A stretch of DNA of 62,974 nucleotides, counting the filler, from Licmophora abbreviata (taxonomy: Eukaryota), in the NCBI GenBank assembly GCA_900291995.1. It is 29 parts of 29 records of this genome, joined end to end, with 100 filler letters (N's around TTAATTAATTAA, not from the genome) between each part and the next. Parts side by side here need not be neighbours in the genome. Positions count along the whole stretch, not along the records: positions 6,751 to 8,846 come from OLMU01005547.1; positions 8,947 to 10,885 come from OLMU01005548.1; 27 more parts are not named here. One strand, written 5' to 3'. The translations under genes and the position numbers were made by a program. The notes beneath the pieces are model-generated. The model was not told where the DNA came from, made no database searches, and worked only from the letters and a program-made list of their open reading frames with translations. Shown here one piece after another: positions 6,751 through 62,061 of this stretch (its first letter is position 1; each line of letters opens with the position of its first letter).

Positions 6751-7036
6751 CTAAAGAGGCCGTCCTCGCCTCCCAATGAGGCGACGTCCATGGTAACAGA
6801 AAGTGGACCGTTCTGGTGGTTGCCAGGCCCAGCCATGCACCGACATCCCGAAAGATACGCGAACACAGGAGCGGAAGCGAAGCCATGATTGCCGGGATCA
6901 AGTTCTCCACGTAAAACTCGTAAACAGAGTCAGCCGTCACATTGACGGGATCTCTCCGGTCTCTTTTCTCGTTTGCTTTCATTCTCGAGGACGTTGTGTC
7001 TCCAGAAGACGCAGTTCGTTGCTTGGATTTACCCAT
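6751..7036 (-). CDS. Hypothetical (possibly membrane) protein, 5' fragment
   Basis: ATG at 7036 (MGKSKQRT...) is open to the spacer; hydrophobic stretch LIPAIMASLPLL. Confidence 0.45.
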
Positions 7037-7042
7037 GGTGGC

Positions 7043-7139
7043 AGTGGGTGTGAGTGTGAGTGTGAGTGTGAGTGTGGGAATGAATGATGGCTCGAATCGT
7101 ATCATAGCGAACAGCTGTGCTCACAGCTGTGCTCACAGG
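7043..7139. repeat. (GTGTGA)n microsatellite plus a 12-bp tandem ACAGCTGTGCTC x2
   Basis: Directly visible: gtgggtgtgagtgtgagtgtgagtgtgagtgtggg and acagctgtgctcacagctgtgctcacagg. Confidence 0.85.
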
Positions 7140-7232
7140 CCCGCTCGCGCGTTCACTCAATGACGCGCGTTCCTTACACGGCTGACAAGCAGACACTTAT
7201 GGTTTTCGCTGGCGTCACAACGACTTTTGAAG

Positions 7233-7249
7233 TTTGGGCGCGCCAAAAA
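7233..7249 (-). promoter_or_regulatory. E2F-like site (TTTGGCGC) in a near-palindrome TTTGGGCGCGCCAAAAA
   Basis: Match to the TTTSSCGC consensus on the minus strand (7240-7247), lying between two divergently oriented ORFs. Confidence 0.35.
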
Positions 7250-7400
7250 TTTCGTTAGATTTTCACAGGTTTTCATCGTCGCATCTTGCTTCGTTCGTGA
7301 TGCGGCACCACGGCACATCTCACTCATTGATTGCTTGACTGCAAAAAATGAAAGGCAAAGATTCGTCTCCTTACTTCATTATCCCTCTTGCTTCAGAAGG

Positions 7401-7991
7401 ATGCACCCTTGTCCAGTCCATCCTCGTTCCAACACGGAAACCAAGAACTCTTTTCTCAGTGTCATTTCCGTTCTGCCCAACTCCAAGAGCAGAAGCAGTT
7501 CCTATGAACAAGCCGTCCAGCGTCTCTTGGGTCCGAATCACAACGAGACCGTCGTTTCTGCCATGGAACAGCTTATTTGTGATACTCTTATTATCATGCA
7601 GTTTTGTCGCCGCCTGACCATCGAAGAGGCCGACGTTCGCCAGGCTGCGGACTGTCTAGGATACCAGGTGCCGGAGTCTATTGGTGACATTGCTCTTACT
7701 CACGACACTACTGTCTTTCGGACATTCTTCGTTGAGTGTATCATTGAGCGCTGCAACACTCAGATCCCCATTGACCACGAGCCCCTGATGGCTCTCCAAG
7801 TCATTCTAGAATCTCTCGAAACTGGAACGGTCACGACCACTCCAATGAAACACGGACGAGCCTTTCACCTCGAGTCCCCGACAGGAGTCACGGCTGCTGT
7901 ATTTGCTCGCGACTGGGAAACCTTCCTGGAGGAAGTTGGAAGCGATGAGGAGGACCAGACTGATGAGAGCAGGGTGACTGATCATGCGTGA
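7401..7991 (+). CDS. Divergent histone-fold protein with an H4-like then an H3-like segment (start uncertain)
   Basis: MEQLICDTLIIMQFCRRLTIEEADVRQAADCLGY resembles H4 alpha2-L2-alpha3. VFRTFFVECIIERCNTQIPIDHEPLMALQVILESL resembles H3 alpha1-L1-alpha2. Acidic C-terminal tail. Confidence 0.55.
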   Translation: MHPCPVHPRSNTETKNSFLSVISVLPNSKSRSSSYEQAVQRLLGPNHNETVVSAMEQLICDTLIIMQFCRRLTIEEADVRQAADCLGYQVPESIGDIALTHDTTVFRTFFVECIIERCNTQIPIDHEPLMALQVILESLETGTVTTTPMKHGRAFHLESPTGVTAAVFARDWETFLEEVGSDEEDQTDESRVTDHA

Positions 7992-8227
7992 CTGAATGTG
8001 CGATTCAGTCATGCGGGACTCATGACAAGAAAGTTTGGTTCGAAAAGTTGAAGGTGTCATCGCGATGCGAAGCCTGATGTTGTCCAAGATGACTAACCTA
8101 CTACTCCGTAGGAGCTAGGAGTTCTCGTCGCGGTGGCCACCCCCCACAACGACTGATCAGAAACAACAACAGTGGGCGCAATAAGGCAAGATCACTATCA
8201 AGAAGAAACGGAAAACAACAGGCAAGC

Positions 8228-8846
8228 ATGGCAGCTGAGAAAGCAGCTGCAAAGTTGCTTTCGGCCTCCGTCAACGGACGAGTGGTGGACGTTCCGAGTG
8301 GTGCCACCCTTTTGGACGCCATTAAAGCTGCTGGAGCTCGTGTCCCCACGCTTTGTTACCATCCAGCCTTCAAGGCGAGTGCTACTTGCCGAATGTGTCT
8401 TGTAGAGGTGGAGAATACTCAGCAAAGAGGAAGCCGGCGATCCGGAGGAGAAACCCACCTATCAGCCGCCTGCCACACTCCAGTCGAGCATGGGATGGTG
8501 GTGACTACAGATACAACGGAGCTCCAAAAGTTCCGAAAGCGAGATTTACAGCTTCTCCTTGCGAGACACCCCAACGAGTGCATGCGATGTGAAGCGTCTG
8601 GAAACTGCAAGTTGCAGGACTTAGTTCAGGAATTCCAGGTAGAAGAGCTGTGGCCCAAGTCCAGTCGTGGATCTCCCGAGCATCCGGAGCATCTTCTGCA
8701 CGACCATACTAGTCCTGCGATTTCTCGCGACATGGACAAATGCATCGAGTGTGGGCTGTGCGTCAAGGCCTGCGAGGATCAGCAGATCGGAGCAATTGGC
8801 TTCGCCGAGAGGGGATACGGCCAGCTTCCCATCACCGCCTTTGATA
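8228..8846 (+). CDS. hydA: [FeFe]-hydrogenase N-terminal FeS domains ([2Fe-2S], His-Cys3 [4Fe-4S], first 2x[4Fe-4S] ferredoxin motif); truncated by spacer
   Basis: VPTLCYHP..CRMCLVEV..AACHTP; HPNECMRCEASGNCKLQ; RDMDKCIECGLCVKAC..IGFAERG. An in-frame TGA at 8090 with no ATG before 8228 makes 8228 the start, barring an upstream exon. Confidence 0.88.
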
Positions 8847-8946
8847 NNNNNNNNNNNNNNNNNNNNNNNNNNNNNNNNNNNNNNNNNNNNTTAATTAATT
8901 AANNNNNNNNNNNNNNNNNNNNNNNNNNNNNNNNNNNNNNNNNNNN

Positions 8947-9939
8947 GAGCCACACGTGGTATCGATCATGCCCTGCACCGCCAAAAAGGAAGAGGCCGTC
9001 AGGCCTGGACAGCGAGGAGACATTGATGCTGTGTTGACCACACGTGAGCTCGCCAAGATGATCAAACATAGAGGTATTCCATTCGCCTCGCTTCCTGACG
9101 ACGGAGAGTTCGATAGTCCTCTCGGAGAGTCCACCGGCGCCGCGGCTCTCTTCGGTGCTAGTGGTGGAGTGCTCGAGGCGGCGCTGCGGACCGCAGCTGA
9201 TGCTCTAGGAATCAAAGATGCTCCGATAGATTGGCACGCTGTCAGAGGAGTAGACCGCCGAGTAAAGGTCGCCACTGTTCCTGGCGTGGGGTCTGTCGCA
9301 GCCTGTAACTCTATTGGTGCCGCGATCGATCTGTTGAGTAATGAATCTTGGAAAGACGATTACGTCATGATCGAAGTAATGTCATGTAAGGGTGGATGCC
9401 TGGGAGGGGGAGGTGAGCCAAAGAGCGATGATCCAGATATTCTGGAAAAGCGCGCGGACGGGATCTATTCCATCGACGAGAAGGCAACAGTACGAAAGAG
9501 TCATCAGAACAAGGAAGTCCTTAAGCTATACGACGACTTCCTCGGTCATCCTCTTTCCGAGCAGTCCGAAAAATATCTTCATGCCACGTACGCACAGAGA
9601 CGCTCTCCTCGCGAGAAGCTAATGCGTTTCCTAGATGCCGTCGACCACCGGGACGGCATGGTGGCTTCGAGTCTGTTCGCAGAATGTGGTGAGTGGCGTA
9701 CAAGTCCAGATACAGAAGCCATCCAAGGAAGAGAAGCCATAAGCACATTCATTAGCACCATCCTTCCTCCTCTTCCAAAACTGAAGCCTGGAGTGGATCG
9801 TCCTCGTCATAAGATGGTAAATCATGCAGAAGGCACAGACGTGAGGACGCCCATGGGCGATACAGTACATTTCGACATTGATATCGATTCTGAAACAGGT
9901 CTCATTGCAGCCTTGACCCGTATACCGTTGGAGAGCTAA
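8947..9939 (+). CDS. hydA: [FeFe]-hydrogenase H-domain C-terminal part, small-subunit segment and C-terminal SnoaL/NTF2-like extension
   Basis: L2 motif SIMPCTAKKEE, VLTTRELA, FDSPLGESTGAAALFGASGGVLEAALRTA, L3 motif EVMSCKGGCLGGGGEP, small-subunit RKSHQN..LYDDFLGHPLSEQSEKYLHATY, then about 110 extra residues. Confidence 0.93.
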   Translation, partial: EPHVVSIMPCTAKKEEAVRPGQRGDIDAVLTTRELAKMIKHRGIPFASLPDDGEFDSPLGESTGAAALFGASGGVLEAALRTAADALGIKDAPIDWHAVRGVDRRVKVATVPGVGSVAACNSIGAAIDLLSNESWKDDYVMIEVMSCKGGCLGGGGEPKSDDPDILEKRADGIYSIDEKATVRKSHQNKEVLKLYDDFLGHPLSEQSEKYLHATYAQRRSPREKLMRFLDAVDHRDGMVASSLFAECGEWRTSPDTEAIQGREAISTFISTILPPLPKLKPGVDRPRHKMVNHAEGTDVRTPMGDTVHFDIDIDSETGLIAALTRIPLES

Positions 9940-10548
9940 GATTGCAGAAATGTTCAGTCTCCGGTGGAAATATTACAAGCCAGTCAGTTCGCAACATGTT
10001 GCTCCTCTCTAGCTAGAGTTGGGGCCCTCCTTTCAGCATCTACCTACGAGTAGTATTCAAATTTATCCTTCCACTCTTGTTGTCATTCTACAAGCCCACC
10101 AAATATCCGGCCTCTTTTGTTGAAGCTCCATTTCAGTCTCAGAAGAGAATTCAAACGGTCCGGCAGGTCGACACTCAACAGATTTAGACTCTTAGCTTCC
10201 TGAAAGACCGGAAGATCGCCACCAGAGGAAGCGTCTGTGGAAAACTGCTCTTTATTGTGAGATTTCTTCAATGGCGACGCGGAATCGCCACAGCCAACAA
10301 GGTGCATTATCCTGACGCACACGCAAGCTAGCCCACTGGTTGTTTCCTGGCTGATTCCTCACAAACACTTCCAAGTATTGTACGTGCGCGATTCATTCAC
10401 TGCAAGCGGAAAAGGAAGGAAGATGAGCCCCCGCGACCTCGAAGCCCTTTGATCTCCATACAGTAGAGGTAAGTCTGTTTATTAACTTGTTCCATAGTTT
10501 CTCTGTAAACATCTATTCCTATTACCAGTACCAACACTTTCAATATAG

Positions 10549-10885
10549 CTAAAGACGGGCAGCAGTGCCCGTGTAAACACCAGCACCGCCAACGATGAGG
10601 CGCCTCAAATGCTCCTTGTAGCCTGGACCTGGTTCGGTCTGGTTGAGTGGATCGCGTCGCGCGGCCTCCATAATTGCCGGATAGACATCACCGTCAGACT
10701 TTCCAAGTGCACTTTTAAGCATAAAGTCTGAAAAGTCACGGGCATCCACTAGCGCAACCGCATTGGGACGAATCGCGTCCAGCATTGTGAGCACATTTGA
10801 CCTCACCCACGTTGCCTGCTTGGCGGACAAGTAGCCGTCCTCCAAGAAGTCGCCCATGTCCTCTTCGAGCCAGTATAGACCAAAG
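10549..10885 (-). CDS. ACOX: Peroxisomal acyl-CoA oxidase, C-terminal fragment
   Basis: IRPNAVALVDARDFSD..LKSALGKSDGDVY..ARRDPLN; C-terminal ARL is a PTS1-type signal. Confidence 0.9.
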
Positions 10886-11262
10886 NNNNNNNNNNNNNNN
10901 NNNNNNNNNNNNNNNNNNNNNNNNNNNNNTTAATTAATTAANNNNNNNNNNNNNNNNNNNNNNNNNNNNNNNNNNNNNNNNNNNNACAGTCAATGGCGGT
11001 GTCCATGTCAGGGGGGTCAAGGTCGATCACACTGAACATTGAGCATCAACAACACCCACCCACTCCTCTCACGAAAGAGAAAACGTCGAAAGACAGACGC
11101 ACTCAAGATTGAAGATGCGATGCGTGATGAGTGATGGAATTTGGAATGTGAAAATGAAAACCCAACACAGTGATGACAACAACACATCCAACAGTCGACG
11201 GGCTCCTCCGTCTTGTTCTGTCGCTCGCTCTTTGCATCGCCTTCCTCTTCGAACCAGTGGCC

Positions 11263-12317
11263 ATGAGTACCTCTACTGAACGGCCTGGATCATCGCCAGA
11301 TTTGTTGTTGGAACGCCTGGCTCAGAACGCCGCATCGTTTCCCGAAAAGACGGCGATTACATTCCTTGCGAGCGGTCCAAATGGTGGCAAGGTCCAGCAA
11401 TCCTTGACGTATCAACAGTTGACGAGAGAAACCAATCAGCTTGCTCACAGACTGCTTCAGAGCGGTCTCAAGCACGGAGATACGGCAGTATTGGTTTATC
11501 CCCCGTCTCTCGACTACATGGTAGCCTTTTTGGCCTGTCTCCAAGCTGGCATCACCGCTGTCCCGACTTTTCCACCCAATCCGGCTCGCAAGGATACCTT
11601 GTGGATGTTTTCGCGCATTGTTCAGGGATGTGGAGCTCAATTTGCTCTTACCAATGCCACGTACAATCATATGAAGAAATTGACTGGAATCAAAGACACC
11701 TTGACTCGCTTGAAACGACAACCCGCAGCCTCGTGGCCAGGAGACTTGAACTGGATCGTCACCAATGATCGCAAAGCCAACGCTACGGCAAAGTCTTTTT
11801 TGCCTGCACCGGCAGCCTCCGACTTGGCTTTTCTACAGTACACATCGGGATCTACTAGTGAGCCTAAAGGAGTCATGATTACTCATGGAAATTTGGCGCA
11901 CAATCTCACCATCATCACTCACGAACTCAAAGCTTCCTCCGATACCGTTGTCGTCTCCTGGCTACCGCAGTATCACGACATGGGACTGATTGGATCGTAC
12001 CTGGGTGTATTATACTGCGGTGGGAGTGGCTATTATATGTCTCCGTTGAGTTTCCTACAACGACCCATGTTGTGGATGGAAGCAGTGTCCAGGTATCAGG
12101 CGACACACTTGCAGGCACCCAACTTCGCGTTTCGACTGACGGCGCGCAAGTTCAACGAGGAGTCGCCTCTCACGCTGTCTTCCGTTCGACACATGATCAA
12201 TGGCGCGGAGCCGGTGGACGAAGAGAGCATAGGAGCGTTTGTGGACGTATTTGGAAAGTTTGGATTGAACCCAAAGGTCATTTATCCAACGTATGGATTG
12301 GCAGAACACACTGTGTT
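11263..12317 (+). CDS. Fatty acyl-AMP ligase (FAAL), N-terminal part
   Basis: LAFLQYTSGSTSEPKGVMITHGNL, SWLPQYHDMGLIG, APNFAF, NGAEPV, YGLAEHTV. Confidence 0.9.
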
Positions 12318-12417: not shown

Positions 12418-13629
12418 GTAGACAAACAAGCATTGGAAGTGGATGGGATTGTTAGACTGGTTTCGGATGAGGAGGACGCCGCCGCCACCACCCGACTTCT
12501 GGGATGCGGTGTCCCTTCCCGGCAAGGTGTCGAGGTTCGGATTGTCCAGACGGAAACGCTGCAAGATCTAACGGAAGATGAGGTTGGAGAAATATGGATC
12601 CACTCGGCGAGCAAAGCCGCTGGCTACTACGGCAAGCCAGTCGAGACGAAGGACGACTTTCACGCCCATCTAGCTGGCACAGACGATAACGATGGCTACC
12701 TCCGAACTGGGGATCTCGGGTTTTTGCACAAGCAAGAGCTCTTTATCTGCGGGCGATTGAAGGATCTTATCATTGTTGGCGGTCGGAATTATTACCCACA
12801 AGACGTCGAGGCGACAGCGGAAGCAGCGTCAGAATCGCTTCGGCCTGGATGCTCTGCTGCTTTTACCATTGATCCAACTCAGCAGGGCGGTGAAGAAGTG
12901 GCGTTGCTTGCCGAGCTCCGTGAGGTTCCCTCCACCGGGGACACAAAAGCTGTCTGCGTGCCAATTGTGGAATCGATTCGTTCGGCCGTGACCCAAGAGC
13001 AGTCGTTGGCGCTCTTTGAAATTGTCCTTCTTCAACCCAGAACGGTTCCAAAGACAACCAGTGGCAAGATTGCCCGAGCTTGGTGTCGAAAAGCTTTCAA
13101 GAAGGAATCTTTGAATGTTGTTTTCCGGAAGCAATTCAAACTAACAACATCGACTGAACCGTTCGAGATTGAACAAGGGGCCAACGATGTAGTATCATCG
13201 CAGCCCCAGTCCCCGCAGCGTCGCATCGGTACAGAAGATGTCCAGAAATTACGTGCCATGAATCGCGACGATTTGTTGGGCAAGCTTGTTGCAGATATTG
13301 CGAGGATTGGTAATCTGTCCACAGAAGACATCCAGGAGGATGCCGCTATCGTTACCATGATGGACAGCCTAAGCATTTCCCAGTTCAAAGGCCTGCTGAC
13401 AGCAGAGTATGCAGTCAAAATTTCAGACGAATACTTATTTCGAGAGTCGACAACACCACACAAACTCGTGGAAGTGGTAAGACTCGGCTATGCTCCCGAC
13501 GATGATGAGGGTAACAATAGTTCAGGAGCTGATGGGTCACCAACAGCGACACCTACCAGTACCGGTAGCGCAGGCGGTCTGGCAGGTGCCCTTGGCTGCC
13601 CACCCGGCGTCTGCTGCGCTATACTTTGA
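12418..13629 (+). CDS. FAAL C-terminal part, acyl-carrier (phosphopantetheine) domain and CaaX tail
   Basis: FAAL-type insertion VDKQALEVDG...RLLGCG, YLRTGDLGF, GRLKDLIIVGGRNYYPQDVE, PKTTSGKIAR; ACP-like MMDSLSISQFKGLL..YAVKISDEYLF; ends CCAIL-stop. Confidence 0.88.
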   Translation, partial: VDKQALEVDGIVRLVSDEEDAAATTRLLGCGVPSRQGVEVRIVQTETLQDLTEDEVGEIWIHSASKAAGYYGKPVETKDDFHAHLAGTDDNDGYLRTGDLGFLHKQELFICGRLKDLIIVGGRNYYPQDVEATAEAASESLRPGCSAAFTIDPTQQGGEEVALLAELREVPSTGDTKAVCVPIVESIRSAVTQEQSLALFEIVLLQPRTVPKTTSGKIARAWCRKAFKKESLNVVFRKQFKLTTSTEPFEIEQGANDVVSSQPQSPQRRIGTEDVQKLRAMNRDDLLGKLVADIARIGNLSTEDIQEDAAIVTMMDSLSISQFKGLLTAEYAVKISDEYLFRESTTPHKLVEVVRLGYAPDDDEGNNSSGADGSPTATPTSTGSAGGLAGALGCPPGVCCAIL

Positions 13630-61276: not shown

Positions 61277-62061
61277 NNNNNNNNNNNNNNNNNNNNNNNN
61301 NNNNNNNNNNNNNNNNNNNNTTAATTAATTAANNNNNNNNNNNNNNNNNNNNNNNNNNNNNNNNNNNNNNNNNNNNTTTTCCTTTTGCATGAGTTTCATG
61401 ACGCTCTGCTCAGTACCTAATAGCTTTTTCGACCTCGTTGGAGCTTTCCATGAGATCACGAATCCAGACTTCGCACACGGACAGGCGGTTTGCGCGGGCA
61501 TTTTCCCGCAGTGTTTTTCGGCACAACTTTTCACCTCGCGCAAACCATGATGGCTTCCATTCGTTCCAAAAACATATCCTCTGATAAAGTGGGTTAAGAG
61601 AAACTCGAGACTGCAGTTTCGTGGAGATCAGACTGATTTCTGGCTCAGAATCGTCGTATTCGTGTCTTCACCGGTTGCATCTTGCTTTCGGAGCTTCGGC
61701 GCGATCACAGACATCGACTTTTTCCATCTTGCGAAAGCTTGTTTCGTTTGTACCGCCATTTTACGTAGAATTGTACGGCAAAACAGTCGCAATGCTGATA
61801 CTTTCGCGGGTGAGCCATTTTTGAAAAGCACGTTCTGACAGCACACACGTCACTTCATGCCGATCTTGACACAATGTTAAATACTGATGGCGTCACTCGT
61901 GAATCGCCATTTTCAATTTACGGGACTGGCACCCTTCTCATTCTGAGTTTCTCTCCTCGCCCCGGAATCGAATCTAGAATCTACTCCGAGTAGTCCTCGA
62001 GTCACTCTCATATTCAATATTCTTCTTTGCCTCGCTCGCTCCCGTTTCAACAGAAGCAACC

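Follow-up and report, generated by a model that had tools for sequence, protein, structure and literature searches.

Group-A [FeFe]-hydrogenases carry three characteristic motifs, L1 (TSCCPxW), L2 (MPCxxKxxE) and L3 (ExMxCxxGCxxGG), and enzymes of the type of CpI, the M3 prototype from Clostridium pasteurianum, depend on the maturases HydE, HydF and HydG. The cysteines of L1 comprise a cluster ligand and a proton relay. The diatom Thalassiosira pseudonana encodes one such protein, HYDA (B8CGB6), which is common to a limited set of centric diatoms and groups with Proteobacteria with a bootstrap of 100 (PMC10407231; here and below, articles are cited from the available portions of their text). 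This protein has also served as the HYDA query in PMC7449678, and Thalassiosira is treated as a separately placed hydrogenase in PMC4989108. Here we describe an orthologue of T. pseudonana HYDA (B8CGB6 / XP_002295160.1) in Licmophora abbreviata (assembly GCA_900291995.1), located on the plus strand at positions 8228..9939 of a stretch of 62,974 bases that we refer to as the window. The gene is not new in kind, as its T. pseudonana orthologue has long been in the literature (PMC10407231, PMC8003979, PMC7449678), and the novelty that the initial annotation attached to it is thereby lost. What the window provides is mainly a correct annotation, together with the extension of the diatom HYDA family to one more lineage as resident nuclear DNA.

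The window gene is one nuclear diatom gene for a single-subunit protein of about 700 residues that belongs to the group-A [FeFe]-hydrogenase family, and we hold its identity and architecture as a group-A HydA with high confidence. The predicted architecture consists of a 2Fe-2S domain, a His-ligated 4Fe-4S cluster, two ferredoxin-type 4Fe-4S clusters (one of which lies in an assembly gap), the H-domain, a small-subunit segment and an NTF2-like end. The N-terminal half (8228..8845), 206 codons long, is cut off by the gap at 8846 and contains matches to Pfam Fer2_4 for the 2Fe-2S domain (about 8258-8515, E 9.9e-19), NADH-G_4Fe-4S_3 for the His/Cys3 4Fe-4S motif (about 8534-8647, E 1.1e-13) and Fer4 for the first CxxCxxCxxxC ferredoxin motif (about 8717-8812, E 9.6e-06); the Cys/His patterns of this F-domain can be read directly in the translation. 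The reading frame of the C-terminal half (8947-9936, stop codon 9937-9939) begins with the C-terminal part of the H-domain and the small-subunit-like segment (8947..9600), where Fe_hyd_lg_C (PF02906) matches with E 3.1e-30 over profile positions 123-245 of 245 only and Fe_hyd_SSU identifies the fused small-subunit-like segment (about 9436-9600, E 6.5e-21). Translation of this half also reveals the L2 motif MPCTAKKEE (8968-8994) and the L3 motif EVMSCKGGCLGGGGEP (9373-9420). The NCBIfam model TIGR02512 ('FeFe hydrogenase group A'), with a whole-protein cut-off of 405.95 bits, scores 149.1 bits on the C-terminal half (positions 211-374 of 375) and 22.8 bits on the N-terminal half, and a full-length family member from Thioclava passes it with 439.4 bits. 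In alignments of 13 and 49 sequences the H-site motif residues are invariant or nearly so. The Pfam and NCBIfam matches and the motifs read in translation thus bear out the initial annotation, which had reported a group-A HydA-type protein with F-domain, L2, L3 and small-subunit segment. Its further statement that the visible parts lack introns is likewise upheld by the collinear alignment with relatives, for which no introns are necessary.

The two halves are separated by a scaffold placeholder (8847..8946), which is one of 28 identical 100-bp placeholders that join the 29 contigs (~1.1-3.9 kb each) of the window; others lie, for example, at 2648-2747 and 61277-61376. Each is composed of 44 N, TTAATTAATTAA and a further 44 N, the 12 bases in the middle being a six-frame stop linker, and the true length of a gap is not given by its placeholder. 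As the window is a chain of contigs with fixed placeholders, gap sizes are uninformative and any feature spanning a placeholder is only as secure as the scaffold order. The content of the missing stretch can nevertheless be predicted from profile coverage: of the 571 positions of model NF040763, the N-terminal half covers 4-181 and the C-terminal half 349-571, so that with positions 181-349 uncovered about 170 residues are missing. The gap should therefore hold about 170 codons for the second ferredoxin cluster, the first half of the H-domain and the L1 motif. Thirteen full-length relatives align collinearly with both halves, and in the gap-equivalent stretch all 13 contain CISCGQCTxxCP and FTSCCPGW, in agreement with the earlier suggestion that L1 and the second ferredoxin cluster were lost in the gap.

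Beyond the small-subunit segment, the protein has an extra C-terminal domain (9601..9939, about 110 residues and the stop codon) that is absent from the initial annotation. The Pfam family SnoaL_4 matches this domain weakly (18.7 bits, below the cut-off of 24) and exceeds the cut-off in two bacterial family members (27.6 and 28.5 bits). An AlphaFold model of 9592-9936, built on a 49-sequence alignment, has a pLDDT (predicted local distance difference test) score of 92.7, and a Foldseek comparison of this NTF2-like model with the Protein Data Bank (PDB) matches 5tgn and ketosteroid isomerases with a probability of 1.00 and TM (template modelling) scores of 0.53-0.69. On the basis of the predicted fold, the domain is assigned to the NTF2-like/SnoaL superfamily, with no catalytic function implied. 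Among its polar positions, D18, R20 and H73 are invariant over 49 family members, and D21 and W35 nearly so (numbered on the 115-residue piece 9592-9936). We found no description in the open-access papers searched of this extra domain of HydA, nor of the bacterial (Thioclava-type) HydA clade that shares it.

When the C-terminal half was searched against longer proteins, 5801 of 7998 candidates matched at E<=0.001. The top matches are proteins of 699-747 residues with 61-71% identity and 98-100% query coverage, NTF2-like end included, and come by cluster from Attheya, Skeletonema marinoi, S. menzelii, Thalassiosira profunda, T. exigua and a cluster with T. pseudonana XP_002295160.1. These are followed, at 53-57% identity, by proteins of Paulinella chromatophora, Salpingoeca urceolata and Hyaloraphidium curvatum, and by bacterial proteins of 690 residues (52-56%) from Thioclava, Seohaeicola, Alloyangia, Roseibacterium, Thiomicrospira, Hydrogenovibrio and Thiomicrorhabdus. 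The N-terminal half gives a similar picture, with 57-70% identity to 13 diatom-clade proteins and 54-59% to four bacterial proteins. The nearest relatives of the window protein are two database proteins (P0003 and P0001, 65-71% identity), and the nearest one with a name, from Attheya, reaches only 65%.

A quick maximum-likelihood tree of 54 chosen rows (42 family members and 12 M3-length outgroups, with no Nar1 sequences) was supported by the Shimodaira-Hasegawa-like approximate likelihood-ratio test (SH-aLRT) only. It recovers a family clade with support of 99, within which a 16-row diatom clade that includes the window protein and a separate 16-row proteobacterial clade each have support of 100, and the other eukaryotes branch outside both. 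The window protein thus belongs to a distinct clade, termed here HydA-NTF2, which is common to marine Proteobacteria and a few aerobic eukaryotes. Its extension to Paulinella, a choanoflagellate and a fungus, as judged from the database proteins, is new. Since diatom and proteobacterial members form separate clades and the other eukaryotes fall outside both, the direction of transfer between eukaryotes and Proteobacteria is open, as it also is in PMC10407231. The lateral acquisition proposed earlier therefore stands insofar as the history involves exchange with Proteobacteria (our tree; PMC10407231), its direction being left open.

The family is sparsely distributed among bacteria. Of 18 genomes of the genus Thioclava, 7 contain a HydA-NTF2 protein, as do 3 of 201 in a family sample (two of them from the close clade) and 3 of 401 in a phylum sample. 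A genome scan yielded, among the 80 loci retained, only one from the close bacterial clade, and a metagenome scan only two diatom-like loci among 74. In one bacterial genome, a 22-kb contig carries a HydA-NTF2 gene (7626-9737) and a MobC/NikA-type mobilisation gene (13129-13530); the latter would fit lateral spread of HydA-NTF2 among bacteria. One Thalassiosirales-like metagenome locus (L127, 3893-6246) contains an orthologue with a 40-residue acid-free leader and two intron-like interruptions in its N-terminal part, the first of which splits the CRMC motif of the 2Fe-2S domain while the other precedes DLQFLL; the window gene, in contrast, is without introns at these places. Synteny between the window and this locus was considered and rejected, as the downstream gene there is not an acyl-CoA oxidase (ACOX), the neighbour of the window gene.

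Comparison with the closest described systems places the window protein more precisely. T. pseudonana HYDA and its orthologues in Thalassiosira, Skeletonema and Attheya share its architecture, NTF2-like end included, its fully supported diatom clade and 61-65% identity over the C-terminal half. It differs from the Thalassiosira, Skeletonema and Attheya proteins in lying in another sub-branch, in having an apparently much shorter leader and in a loop insertion of 13-14 residues in the 2Fe-2S domain. The 690-residue proteobacterial proteins have the same domain order, with the SnoaL-like end, and 52-56% identity over 95-100% of the C-terminal half, and no canonical maturases were found with them, as reported for T. 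pseudonana; they differ in forming a separate monophyletic clade, in lacking an N-terminal leader and in being patchy even inside one genus.

Among solved structures, those nearest to a relative used as query (P0002) are HydA1 of electron-bifurcating or NADH-dependent HydABC hydrogenases (8a6t, 497 bits; 7q4v, 452 bits), followed by CpI (4xdc, 374 bits). HydABC HydA1, which is also represented by the best-scoring NCBIfam model (NF040763), resembles the window protein in its F-domain and H-domain, but the family has the extra NTF2-like domain, and a full-length member scores 654.6 bits, below the NF040763 cut-off of 765. In addition, no HydB or HydC (NuoF/NuoE-like) partner occurs beside the gene in three bacterial loci or among the 35 open reading frames (ORFs) scanned in the window. 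Assignment as a HydABC-type HydA subunit was accordingly rejected. CpI (4xdc, 3c8y) shares the M3 accessory clusters, the H-domain motifs and the fused small-subunit segment, but it is less similar to the family and ends after the small-subunit segment, so that the domain of about 110 residues is extra. The clostridial model NF040762 (cut-off 900 bits) scores below NF040763 on the window halves, giving 82.6 and 173.6 bits, and 444.7 bits on a full-length relative, and a CpI-type assignment was also rejected. The designation 'clostridial-type M3' therefore holds for the cluster set and fails for the lineage, since structure and NCBIfam scores favour HydABC HydA over CpI and the NTF2-like domain is additional.

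The reading that we consider probable is that the window gene is an intact diatom HYDA orthologue, that is, a single-subunit, probably ferredoxin-linked, group-A-type protein whose H-cluster, if made, would be assembled by a non-canonical route. In such a protein, electrons would be supplied by a low-potential donor, likely ferredoxin or flavodoxin given that no HydB or HydC lies beside the three bacterial genes examined, and would pass along the iron-sulfur (FeS) chain to the H-cluster site, where H+ and H2 would be interconverted; the ligands and second-sphere residues of this site appear fully conserved in the family. The [2Fe] subcluster may be made by a non-canonical route of the kind proposed for maturase-less archaea, Giardia and Entamoeba, as the canonical HydE, HydF and HydG appear to be missing in the HydA-NTF2 family. 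The NTF2-like domain might bind a ligand or serve in docking, and in this way gate or localise the enzyme. Most archaeal genomes that encode HydA lack the maturases, with an alternative pathway proposed, and Giardia and Entamoeba make active enzyme without them (PMC11216029). As to whether the window protein would carry out real H2 catalysis in vivo, our expectation is evenly balanced.

Several observations weigh against this reading. Neither HYDEF nor HYDG was detected in T. pseudonana (PMC10407231, citing Atteia et al. 2013; PMC8003979), and its H2 evolution was barely detectable and was stimulated by neither anoxia nor light (PMC10407231, PMC8003979), with no sustained hydrogenase activity measured (PMC10407231). 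Our own searches point in the same direction. Of nine proteobacterial carriers from the close clade, none had HydG at E<=0.001 and none had HydE over its cut-off, and the three that were searched for HydF gave matches of generic GTPase type only (<=80 bits, compared with a cut-off of 325); completeness figures are given neither for these nine genomes nor for the five control genomes. That 9 of 9 proteobacterial HydA-NTF2 carriers are without HydG or HydE over cut-off is a new observation. There is no conserved neighbour across three bacterial loci, and the electron donor was not identified. Finally, the gap conceals L1 and half of the H-domain together with the proton-relay residues, the joining of the two halves follows from scaffold order alone, and a read or contig bridging the gap, looked for in four public metagenome runs, was not found.

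The control for the maturase searches was a set of five genomes with ordinary group-A HydA, four of which had HydG over cut-off, the fifth being a metagenome-assembled genome of 2.6 Mb. Within the window, neither a radical-SAM (S-adenosylmethionine) enzyme nor HydE, HydF or HydG occurs among the 35 ORFs scanned. In Thioclava sediminum (L001) the 690-residue gene stands by itself, flanked by a lytic transglycosylase and a MacAB-type efflux system, and the idea that a conserved neighbour might be a partner or a new maturase was rejected, as the three bacterial loci have none in common. The proposal that the enzyme needs HydE/F/G and produces fermentative H2 for anoxia is unsupported or overstated in view of T. 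pseudonana, which is reported without maturases or sustained activity, and of its bacterial sister clade, which lacks HydG and HydE. A more distant group-A-like frame (G091:C8:283736-284431; 899 codons open, E 1e-41 to the query) was also observed in a genome of the Rhodobacteraceae family (L091), in which HydG and HydE were likewise not over cut-off.

The leading alternative, which we regard as the less likely one although it deserves serious consideration, is that the protein is no longer a hydrogenase. It would then hold FeS clusters only (an apo H-site with its 4Fe-4S) and work either in electron transfer or in sensing redox state, oxygen or small molecules, with the NTF2-like pocket as the working or regulatory site. 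Such a role would suit the difference between the nine bacterial carriers and the control genomes, the stand-alone gene without hydrogenase partners, the invariant D, R and H positions of the NTF2-like domain, and the biology of the carriers, all of which are aerobes or phototrophs (diatoms, Paulinella, Salpingoeca, Hyaloraphidium, Thioclava and Thiomicrospira-type bacteria). However, in known enzymes the L2 lysine, the L2/L3 methionines and the L1 cysteines contact the [2Fe] subcluster, and the same lysine, methionines and cysteine pair (the latter seen in the relatives) are kept family-wide despite identities to the query of only 52-71%. The retention of these [2Fe]-contacting residue classes would be hard to explain if the [2Fe] site were never made and disfavours a non-hydrogenase role. 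T. pseudonana, for which no maturases and no sustained H2 activity are reported (PMC10407231), can be cited in favour of that role, whereas other HydA enzymes that lack maturases are active (PMC11216029).

A broader proposal, which we put forward tentatively, is that HydA-NTF2 is a distinct [FeFe]-hydrogenase-type lineage kept without HydE/F/G by aerobic marine organisms, which would either form the H-cluster by an unknown maturation route or employ the intact H-site pocket together with that of the NTF2-like domain in reactions other than bulk fermentative H2 production. The carriers of this lineage are diatoms, Paulinella, a choanoflagellate, a monoblepharid fungus, Thioclava and Thiomicrospira-type bacteria. 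Of interest here is the joint occurrence, in diatoms (from the literature) and in easily grown marine bacteria (from nine genomes), of a fully conserved H-cluster site with an NTF2-like domain that has not been described and a lack of canonical maturases. If active, the HydA-NTF2 proteins would point to an alternative route of H-cluster assembly; if inactive, they would represent a hydrogenase scaffold reused in aerobes. Either outcome bears on the anoxic survival of diatoms and on hydrogenase engineering, and, if the proposal is true, the culturable and genetically simple bacterial members would make the puzzle of a hydrogenase without maturases directly testable.

An intact orthologue, the reading we favour, also presupposes that the two halves belong to one undamaged gene. 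We consider it very unlikely that the gap hides a disruption or that halves from different loci or paralogues have been put side by side. Such damage might be suspected in a low-contiguity scaffold of 29 short contigs, in which nothing bridges the gap and the contig of the N-terminal half has no other recognisable gene. Yet both halves are on one strand and in the expected order, their profile coverage (4-181 and 349-571) is complementary without overlap, both contain long open frames with 57-71% identity to diatom orthologues, and at least one other gene of the window, for an AMP-binding enzyme, appears to cross a placeholder likewise. Public sequencing runs that share the window's sampled words are marine metagenomes only, with no RNA run among them, and contain <=22% of the words. 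When four marine metagenome runs were compared with 8947-10885, we recovered seven unitigs (151-304 nt) that differ from the window at 0-4 letters each and cover parts of 9366-10174 and 10483-10780; none of the seven links the hydrogenase to ACOX or extends to the gap.

Several lines of evidence bear on the origin of the gene. The contig of the C-terminal half (8947-10885) also holds, convergent with the hydrogenase, the C-terminal domain or last exon of an acyl-CoA oxidase (10552..10857, minus strand; Pfam ACOX, E 5.4e-31) that ends in -ARL. The best match of this piece has 86% identity, and its named matches are diatoms (Helicotheca tamesis, 75%). Many of the 35 long ORFs scanned are plainly eukaryotic, including poly(A) polymerase, ArfGAP, V-ATPase subunit a, CSE1, Josephin, BTB, and ENT and TPT transporters. 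The GC (guanine plus cytosine) content of the hydrogenase (0.53-0.55) falls within the span of 0.48-0.56 shown by 21 other window ORFs, its GC at third codon positions (0.51-0.56; 0.509 in the C-terminal half) is at or just below theirs (0.515-0.68), and its correlation of relative synonymous codon usage is 0.38, compared with 0.15-0.69 for other window ORFs. The ACOX piece on the same contig, the composition like that of neighbouring genes and the fully supported diatom clade together indicate that the hydrogenase gene is diatom nuclear DNA and not a bacterial contaminant, in line with the earlier argument from the shared contig. The contig of the N-terminal half has no such independent marker of origin, as its other ORF, upstream of the hydrogenase (7227-7988, plus strand, 254 codons), lacks a homologue; neither a Pfam family nor, among proteins of 139-445 residues, a homologue at E<=0.001 was found for it, which leaves an orphan gene or no gene at all.

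That the sequence is a bacterial contaminant contig, or encodes a cytosolic iron-sulfur assembly factor of the Nar1/NARF type (whose H-domain-like fold lacks both the ferredoxin-type F-domain and the L1-L3 signatures of hydrogenases), is highly improbable: bacterial relatives reach up to 52-56% identity and the visible parts lack introns, but the protein falls in a diatom clade with full support apart from the bacterial clade, beside a diatom-type ACOX and with the composition of its neighbours, and its F-domain, L2 lysine and full L3, its best family models (group-A hydrogenases) and its place in the strongly supported clade of group-A-type proteins uphold the initial view that it is not Nar1/NARF.

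The 5' end of the gene is less clear. The ATG at 8228 lies about 10 residues before the conserved core, and the frame is open upstream of it from 8093, following an in-frame stop at 8090-8092. The 45 in-frame codons upstream of this ATG are arginine-rich and encode 11 basic and no acidic residues. An ATG at 8065, in another frame, opens with MRSL like the Thalassiosira exigua orthologue, and 19 GT..AG joins from it to the main ORF keep the frame, none with a strong donor; an upstream exon starting there was accordingly not adopted. The region 8065..8227 (plus strand) could be a leader exon or only a 5' untranslated region, and it may represent a leader hidden by an intron or indel. Leaders of the orthologues range from roughly 13 to over 80 residues and are basic, hydroxyl-rich and almost without acidic residues, with wholly acid-free ones of 20-90 residues among them; judged by eye, they look mitochondrial-type and unlike a plastid signal. 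Because of these longer leaders, the acid-free upstream frame and the ATG at 8065, it is not safe to conclude, as had been done, that the protein has no presequence and is hence cytosolic, and a cytosolic location together with fermentative H2 production is at present an unproven prediction.

Other features of the window are of minor relevance. The AMP-binding (acyl-activating) enzyme gene (11170-12315, plus strand) seems to be continued past a placeholder as 12433-13629 (plus strand), the AMP-binding domain alone being confirmed by Pfam. The open frame 12433-13626, whose family is not confirmed, contains a DSLSISQ-type stretch resembling a carrier-protein site and has a CaaX-like CAIL end. 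On the contig of the N-terminal half, a GT/CA dinucleotide repeat at 7029-7105, which can be read as His-Thr, Cys-Glu or Val-Ser runs, looks like an ordinary microsatellite.

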